Shown: positions 24,148 to 27,891 of the stretch, piece by piece
Layout of the letters: the number at the start of each line of letters is the position of its first letter
Position numbering within the stretch: position 1 is the first letter of the stretch
From: Escherichia coli
GTDB taxonomy: Bacteria > Pseudomonadota > Gammaproteobacteria > Enterobacterales > Enterobacteriaceae
Assembly (NCBI RefSeq): GCF_003334255.1
Contig: NZ_QOWU01000010.1
Length of the DNA: 64,000 bases
Reading direction: 5' to 3' (one strand)
Program-made: the position numbers and the translations under genes
Notes under the pieces: model-generated
The model's input: the letters and a program-made list of their open reading frames with translations, nothing else
Databases searched by the model: none
What the model was told of the DNA's origin: nothing

Positions 24148-26160
24148 TTAAGAGGCCAGCGTACCTTGCGGTGGTGCTTGCTCAAGTTGCGAAAGCGAGC
24201 AGTACAGCCGCCAGACAATTGCCGCCAGCTCACGGGCGGCAGGTTGATGATGACGGGCAAGGCTGTCGCAAATCCGCTGTAATTCTTCAAGTGTGGCCGC
24301 CAGTGATTTTTGCTGAACGCCACGCTCACTCATCACTCCCCGCAACAGTGAAATACAGTTATCCCGTACTCGCGATAACGGATCGGAACGCGATTCCCAG
24401 TCGCGCAATTGCCAGACAACATGAGAACAGTTCAGCAGCACTACACCCCAGCGTAATAACCAACGGCGAGCCAGCGCATCCTGGCTGTTACTCAACTGAC
24501 TGACGTGATGATAAGTGAGCGATTCAAATTCGCTTTCACTCAGTGTTGGATGGCGGCTTAGCTGATCGACAAAATCCCGGCGCAGCGCGCGAATATGGCG
24601 GCGGCTTTTACGAGCATCCGATCCTGGACGCAGAATGGCGAACGCTAACCACGCCAACGCGACGCCAACGATTTTTGCCAGATTATCGTTAAGAAAATCA
24701 GCAAAATCATACACCGGGGGATTAGTGACAGCGATAAAAGAACCCATAAAAACAATCAGTTGCCCCCACAATGCGGCAAATTTTGGCATCTGCAATTTAA
24801 GAAGCTGCATTGTCGCCAGCAGTGGAAAGAGAAACAGTAAAAATTGCCACAGATCGCTAATCTGGACCATCAGACCAAATTTGACCACAAAGCTGAATAG
24901 CGAAAGTAACACCAGCGTGCGCATCAGAAGTGACAACGACTTAAACGGTGCTGCGACGGCGGAGTAGAGTACGCAGCTAATTGCTGCCAGCGTTAATGCA
25001 TTGGCACCGGCATCCCATTGCGAAGCAATACTCCATGCGCCAATCATCATCAACGTACAAAATGTACGCAGCCCGCTCCACATAGCTTCGGCGTTATCGG
25101 TATGACGAGCCAGGCCGGATGTCCGTGGGAGTCTGGTATGATCATCTACACCGCTTTGCAGACGATGTAATTCCTGACTACTTTGCAGATAAAGGCGGCA
25201 AAAATAACGTAGTCGCTGCCAGAAGGCGACGTGCCGATAGTCGGCGACGTTGGTCGGGCGTAGCGGGGCGATAATACGTGCGACGGTGTAAACATCTGTT
25301 TGCGAACTGGCGAGCGCCGTCAGCAACTGTTCGAGAATTTCTCGTGTGGCACCTGGCGGTGAGGGCCAGTTGAGCAACATACGTCGCAGGCTGGAGATGA
25401 CACTGGTCATACGTAATTGCTGGTGGAGCAGCGCATTAAGGCGCGCGTTTTGCTGGCGAAAACGATAGTGGCTCCAGAAAGCCTGGATACGCAGCAAATT
25501 CATGGTCAGTATCTGCCCAATCACCCCTTCATGTGCTGCACGAATGGCATCGGTTGTTTCAGGCTGCCAGAGTAAACTGGCATGTTCCAGTAATCGGGCG
25601 TGCATGTTTTTCAATGCGGTTAAAAGGGCAGTAGCATCGGAACTGCTCGGCAGGATCATCATCATCATGCCGCCGCACAAAATACCGACTATTACCTCGC
25701 AAACGCGCGCCTGAGCGATATCCCACAGCTGGCTGGCCTCAGTAATATTAACCATCGGAAAGGCGATGATGGCAGCCGTGTAGCCCGCCAGTTGAAATGC
25801 ATACGCGACGTTATTCGTGAAGTGCGCACAGGCCCAGGTACAAAAGCCAAGCCACGCCGACATGCTCAATAGAAAAAACCACGGCTCATTGAGCGTATGC
25901 CCGGCAAGAAGCAGTGCCGCAATGGCTCCGAGCAAACTGCCAGCGATGCGTCCGAGGCTTTTGCTGATAACACCGCCAACGGTGGGAAAGCTAACCACTG
26001 CAGCCGAGGTCATCGCCCAATAGGGTTCATCCAGATTTAAATAATAGGCAACCGTCAGCGCCAGACACATGGCAATGGTATTGCGTAACGCATAACGCCA
26101 TTGCGCCAGCGTGGCCCTGAACCAGGGCAAATTGCGCAAGGACCATGACGATGCGTTCAT
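24148..26160 (-). CDS. ydhK: YdhK, AaeB/fusaric-acid-resistance family inner membrane efflux protein, 670 aa
   Basis: Two hydrophobic multi-TM blocks separated by cytoplasmic domain, characteristic of the AaeB (FUSC) family; operon ydhIJK. Confidence 0.9.
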
Positions 26161-27017
26161 TATTGACCTACGGCAATGCTACAGGTGGTGCCCGACACCA
26201 ACGTGACATCGCCTGGGACTTTATCCAGCGCAAAGCGGACGGGAACGCGTTGGGCGAGTCGAACCCAGGGGACGTTGGGTTTAACATCCGGAATAAGGCT
26301 TGAGTCACTTTCAACGCTCTGATCATAAATCGCCCGACCGATACTGGAAACGTGACCCTGTAACGTTTTGTTATCACTATAGAGGGTAATTTGTGCTGGT
26401 GCACCTTCGCGGATATGGCGCAACTTGGTTTCTTCAAAATAACCAATGACGTAAAACGAGTGGCTGTCGACAAGGGCAAACAGCGGTTTCCCGGTATCAG
26501 CGTAATCGCCGATGCGGGTAGTAAGGTTAGTCACCCATCCACTCACCGGGGCGCGAATTTCCGTTTGCGCCAGTTGCCATTGTGCCTGTTTCAGCGTCGC
26601 CTGTGCGGCATCAACACTGGCCTGCATCGCTTTAACATTGAGGTTAGCGGTATCGAGTTCTTCGGCAGAAATAAAATTTTGTGAGAGATGACGACGACGA
26701 TTCGCTTCGTTATTGGCTTTTGCGAGGTCAGATTGCGCTTTCGCCAGCTGAGCCTGTGCGTTCAGCTCGGCGATCTGAAAGGGCGTTTTATCGATCGTGA
26801 GCAGAAGATCCCCCGCGTTAACCAGCTGGTTGTCTTTTATATTCAGCTCAACAATACGTCCCGACACCTGTGGGGTGATAGAAACCTGTTCTGCGCGTAT
26901 TTTCCCGTCGCGTGTCCACGGAGATTGCATGTAATAATTCCACAGCCACCATCCGGCAAGAACCGCAACTACCGCTACAATGATTGTTGAGAAATACTTA
27001 ATTGTTTTAATTGACAT
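26160..27017 (-). CDS. ydhJ: YdhJ, HlyD-family membrane fusion protein, 285 aa
   Basis: Single N-terminal TM, coiled-coil ([22 protein letters not shown]), beta-barrel C-terminus; start set at MSIKTIKYF, 2 bp after the ydhI stop. Confidence 0.9.
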
Positions 27018-27019
27018 AG

Positions 27020-27256
27020 TTACCACGCAATCAGTATTGCCAGAGCAAGGCAAACGCAAATCGCAAACAGCGATAAATCCATTAACAAGGGATGCCAGAT
27101 GTCACCGGCGTAGATCCAGCCACGAAGCAGGCGGTGTACGACAAGCCAGATGACGAATCCAAACGCGAATGCTTTGAAAAACGGAGGAAAGTAGACGGAC
27201 GCACCGAACACCAGATCTTGTAAGGGCAATCCTGTTGCATTGAGCATAAACTTCAC
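27020..27256 (-). CDS. ydhI: YdhI, DUF1656 small membrane protein (AaeX-like), 78 aa
   Basis: Two-TM small protein preceding the MFP/AaeB-like pair. Confidence 0.9.
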
Positions 27257-27428
27257 AAAGTAGATTCCTTTACGACCGAATATATTGCGTTAGATTAATA
27301 AATATTCTTTAAGTGCGAAAAATTTACGCGCAATTTCTGAAAAATATGTCTGACGGTAACCAAATGCAGCAATACATTTGTTTTAGCAATACAATTGCTG
27401 CACACTATTCTAAAAGCCGCATAATATC

Positions 27429-27440
27429 TTAGCAAGCTAA
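27429..27440. promoter_or_regulatory. SlyA box (TTAGCAAGCTAA) in slyA / ydhIJK divergent promoter region
   Basis: Exact 12-bp palindrome TTAGCAAGCTAA, the reported SlyA consensus, 17 bp upstream of the slyA start. Confidence 0.7.
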
Positions 27441-27456
27441 TTATAAGGAGATGAAA

Positions 27457-27891
27457 TTGGAATCGCCACTAGGTTCTGATCTGGCACGGTTGGTGCGCAT
27501 ATGGCGTGCTCTGATAGACCATCGCCTGAAACCGCTGGAGTTAACACAAACCCATTGGGTTACGTTACACAATATCCATCAGTTACCTCCAGACCAGTCG
27601 CAAATTCAACTGGCAAAAGCGATTGGCATCGAGCAGCCATCACTGGTCCGTACTCTGGACCAACTGGAAGAAAAAGGGTTAATTTCGCGTCAAACTTGTG
27701 CCAGCGATCGTCGGGCTAAACGTATTAAACTGACGGAAAAGGCAGAGCCGCTGATCAGCGAAATGGAAGCTGTTATTAACAAAACCCGCGCGGAAATATT
27801 ACATGGCATCTCCGCAGAGGAACTGGAGCAACTGATTACGCTCATCGCAAAACTTGAGCATAATATCATTGAGTTACAGGCCAAAGGGTGA
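27457..27891 (+). CDS. slyA: MarR-family transcriptional regulator SlyA, 144 aa (TTG start; an ATG 6 nt upstream is also possible)
   Basis: Translation (M)[39 protein letters not shown]...; AAGGAG RBS is spaced correctly for TTG at 27457 and abuts the ATG at 27451. Confidence 0.93.

Follow-up and report, generated by a model that had tools for sequence, protein, structure and literature searches.

The slyA-ydhIJK divergon of Escherichia coli: an AaeXAB-like module and a conserved SlyA box at the slyA end of its spacer

We analyzed a stretch of 64,000 nucleotides of Escherichia coli DNA (NCBI RefSeq assembly GCF_003334255.1, contig NZ_QOWU01000010.1; the whole stretch is referred to as the window), in which the genes ydhI, ydhJ and ydhK are separated by a short spacer from the regulator gene slyA and in which this spacer carries a perfect SlyA palindrome (the box). 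The region is part of the E. coli core chromosome, positions 24000-28000 being matched at 98-100% identity in every one of the 5426 complete E. coli genomes, and represents a conserved enterobacterial slyA-ydhIJK divergon. Gene boundaries were those of the RefSeq annotation of an identical genome, which was mapped onto the window and compared with a mechanical list of open reading frames (ORFs). Conservation was assessed on the slyA loci of 80 species-representative Enterobacteriaceae genomes; individual loci are given with L numbers where they have to be told apart. The divergent orientation of ydhIJK and slyA, which had been noted in a preliminary description of the region made from the sequence, agrees with the RefSeq annotation and is kept in 78 of the 80 species loci. 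ydhIJK is a translationally coupled operon, in which 2 nt separate the ydhI stop codon from the start of ydhJ, while the ydhJ stop codon and the ATG of ydhK overlap in the junction ATAATG. All genes and sequence features are listed in Table 1.

Table 1. Genes and sequence features at the slyA-ydhIJK locus, in window positions; match counts are to the SlyA consensus.
Feature	Position	Strand	Description
sodC	23626-24147	+	RefSeq annotation
ydhK	24148-26160	-	670-aa inner-membrane FUSC/ArAE-family protein; ORF and RefSeq ("FUSC family protein")
ydhJ	26160-27017	-	285-aa periplasmic adaptor (membrane fusion protein); RefSeq boundaries
ydhI	27020-27256	-	78-aa small membrane protein, DUF1656, AaeX-like, GTG start; ORF and RefSeq
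ydhI-slyA spacer	27257-27456		200 bp, 68.5% A+T
ydhI-proximal TTAN6TAA site TTAGATTAATAA	27290-27301		Centre 39 bp upstream of ydhI GTG; conserved in Escherichia only
Sigma-E-like candidate cGCACTT-16 nt-TCTAA	27317-27290	-	Motif scan; overlaps the TTAGATTAATAA site
Degenerate site ACGGTAACCAAA	27353-27364		6/12 match; aligns with Salmonella TTGGTAAGCAAA
Second SlyA-like site TTAGCAATACAA	27383-27394		9/12 match; centre 68 bp upstream of slyA TTG; putative function
Alternative slyA promoter TTAGCA-17 nt-TATTCT	27383-27388 and 27406-27411	+	Candidate
Sigma-70-like TTGCTA-17 nt-TAGAAT toward ydhI	27407-27435	-	Candidate; -35 inside the perfect box
slyA -10 CATAAT	27420-27425	+	Candidate; TATAAT in 57/80 species; ends 3 nt upstream of the box
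Perfect SlyA palindrome TTAGCAAGCTAA	27429-27440		12/12 match; minimal form TTAN6TAA
slyA Shine-Dalgarno AAGGAG	27445-27450	+	6 nt before the TTG start; abuts ATG at 27451
slyA	27457-27891	+	144-aa MarR-family regulator, TTG start; RefSeq
slyB	27938-28405	-	RefSeq annotation

The box was found to be exact, as the preliminary description had it. It is the only copy in the window and is still the sole site when one mismatch is allowed; from base composition about 0.004 exact copies of TTAGCAAGCTAA would be predicted per 64 kb. The TTG of slyA begins 22 bp downstream of its centre, the GTG of ydhI is 178 bp away on the other side, and only 4 bp separate the box from the slyA Shine-Dalgarno sequence. 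Among the 80 species the box is exact in 78, the other two having one-base variants, and the distance of its centre to the slyA start codon is 22 bp in all but one (21 bp, due to a 1-nt deletion). The Salmonella loci carry the identical TTAGCAAGCTAA at the same position. Intestinirhabdus alba (L040) has no ydhIJK and Kosakonia oryziphila (L062) has remnants only (of ydhI and of the 3' end of ydhK); both keep slyA, the unchanged perfect box and slyB. An alignment of 33 species and a per-position comparison of the 80 loci revealed that the slyA-proximal 85-90 bp of the spacer, approximately, are near-invariant across Enterobacteriaceae genera, and that the ydhI-proximal part of about 110 bp is variable and barely alignable. 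A conserved slyA side and a variable ydhI side have likewise been described elsewhere (PMC6401476). Of the 5424 E. coli genomes that matched the spacer, 5406 did so at 99% identity or more; over the surrounding 4 kb this level was reached by 2373 of 5426 genomes, so that the spacer is the more uniform of the two. Since the slyA side is conserved, the ydhI side is variable and the box is kept where ydhIJK is missing, the selective constraint on the box tracks slyA rather than the pump. The box is best read as slyA's own high-affinity operator, because of its position at the slyA end, its conserved placement and its retention in the two species without a complete ydhIJK operon.

The footprinting with Salmonella SlyA on which the SlyA consensus is based was reportedly done on the slyA promoter itself, and the box in the window is presumably the very site from which this consensus was derived. 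If so, the exact match is circular, and the box has to be regarded as a type specimen rather than as an independent find. According to PMC5797941, the consensus TTAGCAAGCTAA was proposed from footprinting together with limited SELEX (systematic evolution of ligands by exponential enrichment) with Salmonella SlyA; Table 3 of PMC5797941 also gives this box sequence at 22 bp upstream of slyA in E. coli K-12.

The preliminary assignment of YdhI, YdhJ and YdhK to the DUF1656, HlyD-type membrane fusion and FUSC/AaeB families, respectively, was borne out by Pfam and NCBIfam matches. YdhI, which has two hydrophobic segments, matched DUF1656 (PF07869, E 1.8e-14) and showed 33% identity over 51 amino acids to AaeX of E. 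coli K-12 in BLASTP searches; its best NCBIfam match was also AaeX, weakly so with 21 bits against a cut-off of 82. YdhJ matched the Pfam domains HlyD_D23, Biotin_lipoyl_2 and HlyD_3 and carries a single N-terminal hydrophobic segment as an anchor (residues 8-26). It is 41% identical to K-12 AaeA over 282 amino acids by BLASTP, and AaeA was its best NCBIfam match (243 bits, cut-off 400), followed by MdtN and EmrA. YdhK is covered nearly over its full length (residues 20-661) by the FUSC domain (PF04632, E 5e-140); it is 24% identical to K-12 AaeB over 521 amino acids by BLASTP, and AaeB was its sole NCBIfam match (120 bits, cut-off 870). Identities reported elsewhere are 34.1% for YdhJ and AaeA and 21.1% for YdhK and AaeB (PMC12506092). 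An orthology of ydhIJK with aaeXAB was rejected, since all three NCBIfam scores are far under the equivalog cut-offs. By the measure of these sequence comparisons ydhIJK is distantly paralogous to AaeXAB, an exporter of aromatic carboxylates, and falls outside of the AaeXAB orthologous groups. The parallel to aaeXAB drawn in the preliminary description therefore stands in the sense that the gene order is identical and the proteins are distant paralogues and not orthologues, and the term "AaeXAB-like" is correct for architecture and homology. SlyA itself was assigned by the NCBIfam SlyA equivalog (278.7 bits, cut-off 120).

Additional information on the transport protein was obtained with a family profile of YdhK, built from 85 diverse full-length homologues. 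This profile matched channels of the plant aluminium-activated malate transporter (ALMT) type, namely ALMT9, ALMT1 and QUAC1, in the Protein Data Bank (PDB) with E-values from 2.4e-9, for ALMT9, to 8e-6, and the match to the ALMT transmembrane region covers YdhK residues ~40-257. With the single YdhK sequence, only a marginal match to QUAC1 (E 0.4) was obtained among PDB sequences, and no solved bacterial FUSC/ArAE structure was detectable by sequence search. YdhK has an N-terminal (residues 19-196) and a C-terminal membrane domain (residues ~358-536) that are homologous to each other (hhalign probability 95%, E 3.9e-8), a duplication that is visible only by profile-profile comparison, as a direct BLASTP comparison of the two halves was not significant (E 0.18). 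An AlphaFold2 model of YdhK had a mean pLDDT (predicted local distance difference test) of 93.7 and a pTM (predicted template modelling score) of 0.91, and when the model was compared to the PDB with Foldseek, the top nine matches were all chains of ALMT1 or ALMT9, with a probability of 1.00 and each covering about half of YdhK. Because of the profile match, the internal repeat and the Foldseek matches of the model, YdhK is best regarded as two ALMT-like modules fused into a pseudo-dimer, each half being similar to a single ALMT protomer. The ALMTs themselves form dimeric channels that let organic carboxylate anions pass, and a relationship between the FUSC and ALMT families is already present in public family classifications; the ALMT likeness is therefore context and not a discovery. 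In the literature we found no paper that links AaeB with ALMT.

Besides the perfect box, the spacer contains several weaker SlyA-like sites. The second site, centred at -68 relative to slyA, recurs in many genera, as TTGGCAATATAA in Enterobacter and Leclercia and as TTAGCAATATAA, with a 10/12 match, in L035. A possible -35 hexamer of slyA, which reads TTAGCA in the window and TTGGCA in many species, overlaps with the site; the site is absent from the candidate list in Table 3 of PMC5797941. The site TTAGATTAATAA near ydhI was given as a candidate SlyA site 161 bp upstream of slyA in that study (PMC5797941). The third site, ACGGTAACCAAA, is of interest because of its Salmonella counterpart: the Salmonella loci L027 and L033 carry TTGGTAAGCAAA (about positions 4397-4408 of these loci), a 9/12 match located 102 bp upstream of ydhI, which is a probable Salmonella ydhI operator near the -35 region of the ydhI start site. 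A salicylate-sensitive SlyA site linked to Salmonella ydhI, 12 bp in length, with 75% identity to the consensus and near the ydhI -35, has been published (PMC6401476), and we infer that TTGGTAAGCAAA is this site. The degenerate state of ACGGTAACCAAA could account for the difference between Salmonella, where ydhIJK is repressed by SlyA, and E. coli K-12, where no repression is detectable.

A different kind of control may be indicated by a sigma-E-like motif, which was sought as GGAACTT-N16-TCNAA. Transcripts from this candidate would begin some 25-30 nt ahead of the ydhI GTG. Its -35-like GCACTT is confined to E. coli proper, being missing in E. albertii, in E. whittamii and in 70-odd other genera, and the motif was detected in 0 of 77 loci of other species, so that it was rejected as a conserved feature of the divergon. 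As a candidate ydhI promoter in E. coli the motif would fit the reported sigma-E dependence of ydhIJK, which is a sigma-E target with RNA levels up 20-fold on sigma-E induction (PMC7075262; also PMC2685091). Taken together, the decayed operator and the E. coli-specific sigma-E-like motif suggest a weakened control by SlyA and an added control by sigma-E.

Two candidate promoters were identified for slyA. With CATAAT as the -10 hexamer, the slyA start site would lie inside of the box, and the alternative promoter would start transcription about 10 nt upstream of the box, placing it at about +11 to +22. Under either promoter the box would thus lie at or just downstream of the slyA start site, a position that would suit autoregulation. 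Mapped start positions of slyA or ydhI were not found in PMC3335776 and PMC2156107. The spacer itself can be interrupted in nature: in E. coli SC516, a chicken isolate (L083, NZ_CP025048.1, locus 1940-2914), an ISApl1 transposase gene is located in the spacer about 80 bp from ydhI. Through this insertion the pump operon is no longer joined to the conserved block next to slyA, and the isolate represents a natural uncoupling mutant.

Many MarR regulators serve both divergent genes from one operator, and the perfect box might be such a shared operator of a classical MarR-type divergon, at which one SlyA dimer represses both ydhIJK and slyA. We consider this improbable. The TTGCTA-17 nt-TAGAAT match with its -35 in the box is the sole minus-strand sigma-70-like match in the spacer and its TAGAAT hexamer is kept in 71 of 80 loci; however, a match of this quality (9/12) is at chance level, as shuffled sequence averages 1.3 such matches per region, and with the box 178 bp away from the ydhI start the transcript would carry an approximately 144-nt leader that crosses the least conserved stretch of the spacer. 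Repression of the operon is strong in relatives of E. coli. In Salmonella, SlyA represses slyA 5.3-fold and ydhI about 19-fold in transcription in vitro, which is relieved by salicylate (PMC6401476), and mutants of kvrA, the slyA orthologue of Klebsiella, have YdhJ increased 45- to >100-fold (bioRxiv 10.1101/845925). Yet the Salmonella ydhI site is a different 12-mer, the box is unchanged in the two genomes without an intact ydhIJK operon, and no significant transcript changes were seen in an E. coli K-12 slyA mutant (PMC5797941). The view implied in the preliminary description, that the box is an element of the ydhI promoter, appears imprecise on similar grounds, namely its position at the slyA end (22 versus 178 bp), its retention without ydhIJK and the different Salmonella site.

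Alternatively, E. coli SlyA could be a weak activator of ydhIJK that binds to the A+T-rich spacer and acts as a counter-silencer by antagonizing H-NS, which we regard as possible but rather unlikely. Overproduction of SlyA in E. coli K-12 increased ydhIJK 2.2-fold, and ydhIJK was flagged as H-NS-associated in one chromatin immunoprecipitation data set (PMC5797941). K-12 SlyA binds the 200-bp slyA-ydhI fragment in electrophoretic mobility shift assays with an apparent Kd of ~50-100 nM (PMC5797941), and both the base composition of the spacer and the degenerate E. coli counterpart (6/12) of the Salmonella ydhI operator would be in line with such a role. Nevertheless the effect is small and was seen on overproduction only, the slyA mutant being without significant changes (PMC5797941), the operon is strongly repressed in close relatives (PMC6401476, PMC12506092, 10.1101/845925), and a more recent preprint refers to repression of the operon in E. 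coli. That the palindrome is nothing but a functionless chance match could be argued from the A+T-rich spacer, in which short TTA and TAA words are common, but a chance origin was rejected and is effectively refuted by the low expectation in 64 kb, by the lack of any other match with one mismatch, by the exact conservation at the same place in 78 of 80 species while the other half of the spacer is unalignable, and by the published binding of the fragment to SlyA in vitro (PMC5797941).

We consider it probable that the locus is a slyA-ydhIJK divergon with a paralogous carboxylate exporter, in which the perfect box is the slyA operator and the pump is run by weaker sites next to ydhI. A SlyA dimer on the perfect box would mainly tune the expression of slyA. 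The aromatic carboxylates salicylate, 4-hydroxybenzoate and 2,3-dihydroxybenzoate release SlyA from the DNA; the latter two have been reported to inhibit SlyA (PMC12506092). ydhIJK would be controlled through sites that are weaker, evolve fast and lie in the half of the spacer next to ydhI; in Salmonella and Klebsiella these sites would confer strong repression. In E. coli K-12, with its degenerate Salmonella-type operator, ydhIJK would respond mainly to sigma-E and show only a mild rise with SlyA overproduction. YdhK would most probably export carboxylate anions, either aromatic or other organic ones, from the cytoplasm, the membrane potential might drive the exit of these anions, and YdhJ would presumably extend the exit path across the periplasm.

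As a tentative extension, which we hold to be doubtful, E. coli might have been rewired more thoroughly. In such a case the ydhI operator for SlyA would have decayed (6/12 compared to 9/12 in Salmonella), an E. coli-specific sigma-E promoter would have arisen, ydhIJK, freed from classical repression by SlyA, would serve as an envelope-stress-induced, ALMT-like exit for carboxylates and the box would serve slyA only. If true, such a rewiring would reconcile the opposite signs of SlyA control observed in E. coli on one side and in Salmonella and Klebsiella on the other. A weaker addition to this proposal is that YdhK might act as an electrogenic anion channel rather than as a proton-coupled pump.

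A number of observations weigh against the divergon with slyA-directed box and paralogous exporter as proposed here. On the side of transport, no outer-membrane component is encoded at the ydhIJK locus, the Foldseek E-values of the YdhK model are modest (2e-3 to 4e-2) with target-normalized template modelling (TM) scores of 0.41-0.56, and a channel-like mechanism is suggested solely by similarities of fold and profile. On the side of regulation, the position of the box relative to the slyA +1 is deduced from conserved hexamers only, and with the conserved sigma-70-like -35 in the box there is a low probability that the box takes part in ydhI repression by way of a long leader. The effect that the box has on E. 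coli slyA may moreover be of either sign, as the title of a study of 2007 by Corbett, in the form in which PMC5797941 cites it, speaks of positive and not negative autoregulation of slyA in E. coli.

As for the boundaries of the genes, the preliminary description had placed the ORFs and the end of slyA at 27891 correctly, and two starts were refined. The true ydhJ start according to the RefSeq boundaries is the ATG at 27017, compared to 27059 for the longest ORF. slyA starts with the TTG at 27457 and not with the in-frame ATG at 27451, two codons upstream, because this ATG is AGG in L079 and is out of frame in L043, whose TTG became ATG. The Shine-Dalgarno sequence of slyA is unchanged in 80 of 80 loci. 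The UUG start of slyA has been shown experimentally and limits the level of SlyA (PMC3173223). On the other side of the operon, sodC and ydhK are convergent without a single intergenic base, the sodC stop codon (24145-24147, plus strand) abutting the ydhK stop codon (24148-24150, minus strand). A scan for intrinsic terminators revealed no terminator-like hairpin at this junction, the sole hit being at chance level and inside of sodC (24001-23988), and none in the ydhI-slyA spacer. No Rfam family for a leader RNA or small RNA reached the gathering threshold between 20000 and 32000. In many genera, among them Enterobacter, Klebsiella, Kluyvera and Superficieibacter, the distance between slyA and slyB exceeds that of Escherichia by about 1.5 kb; the larger distance in L025, L031, L035, L046 and others (about positions 5000-6600 of the loci) would imply that an extra gene is inserted between the two.

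The locus described here is the one known from E. coli K-12 and from Salmonella Typhimurium, without substantive difference (Curran 2017, PMC5797941; Will 2019, PMC6401476; Will and Fang 2025, PMC12506092), and the box at 22 bp and the site at 161 bp upstream of slyA agree with Table 3 of PMC5797941. Earlier publications thus cover the locus, the SlyA site, the binding of SlyA and the regulation for three genera, and they have provided fusaric acid as a first substrate. In Salmonella, growth with fusaric acid is delayed in ydhIJK mutants and better in slyA mutants (PMC6401476), and RNA sequencing has confirmed the repression of ydhIJK by SlyA in a study that states the function of YdhIJK as unknown (PMC12506092). 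YdhK of E. coli has been given as uncharacterized (PMC10971958). This is in agreement with the preliminary description, which had called the substrate poorly defined and the system not new. The tests proposed there are largely covered by published data on SlyA binding, on expression of ydhIJK in slyA mutants and overproducers, on relief by salicylate and on resistance to fusaric acid. The additions made here are small and consist of the retention of the box without ydhIJK, the -68 site, the apparently degenerate ydhI operator of E. coli and the E. coli-specific sigma-E-like -35. The retained box, the decayed operator and the sigma-E-like motif slightly sharpen the question of why SlyA control differs between E. 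coli and Salmonella or Klebsiella.

Compared to known transport systems, AaeXAB has the same gene order as ydhIJK, with a DUF1656 gene followed by a membrane fusion protein gene and a FUSC/ArAE gene, and its locus likewise has a divergently transcribed regulator gene. This regulator, however, is the LysR-type activator AaeR, whereas the neighbour of ydhIJK is the MarR-family SlyA. Both systems deal with aromatic carboxylates, AaeAB as an exporter of 4-hydroxybenzoate and others and YdhIJK with fusaric acid in Salmonella (PMC12506092, PMC6401476). The plant ALMT/QUAC proteins (PDB 8HIW, 7VQ3, 7W6K) handle organic carboxylate anions, as YdhK would, at a sequence identity of about 15% to YdhK. 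They are homodimers with one module per chain, in contrast to YdhK with its two diverged modules fused in one chain, and YdhK, unlike these, has a periplasmic adaptor and a DUF1656 protein as partners. Regarding regulation, the closest parallels are the marRAB and emrRAB/mprA divergons, where a MarR-family regulator is also encoded beside an efflux operon; the binding of SlyA to DNA is released by aromatic carboxylates (PMC6401476). slyA-ydhIJK differs from these in that the operator of highest affinity is found on the regulator's side of the spacer, and the pump repression of the classical divergons is not seen in E. coli K-12 (PMC5797941). Furthermore SlyA, unlike the regulators of the marRAB and emrRAB type, has become a pleiotropic counter-silencer (PMC6401476), which persists in genomes that have lost the pump.

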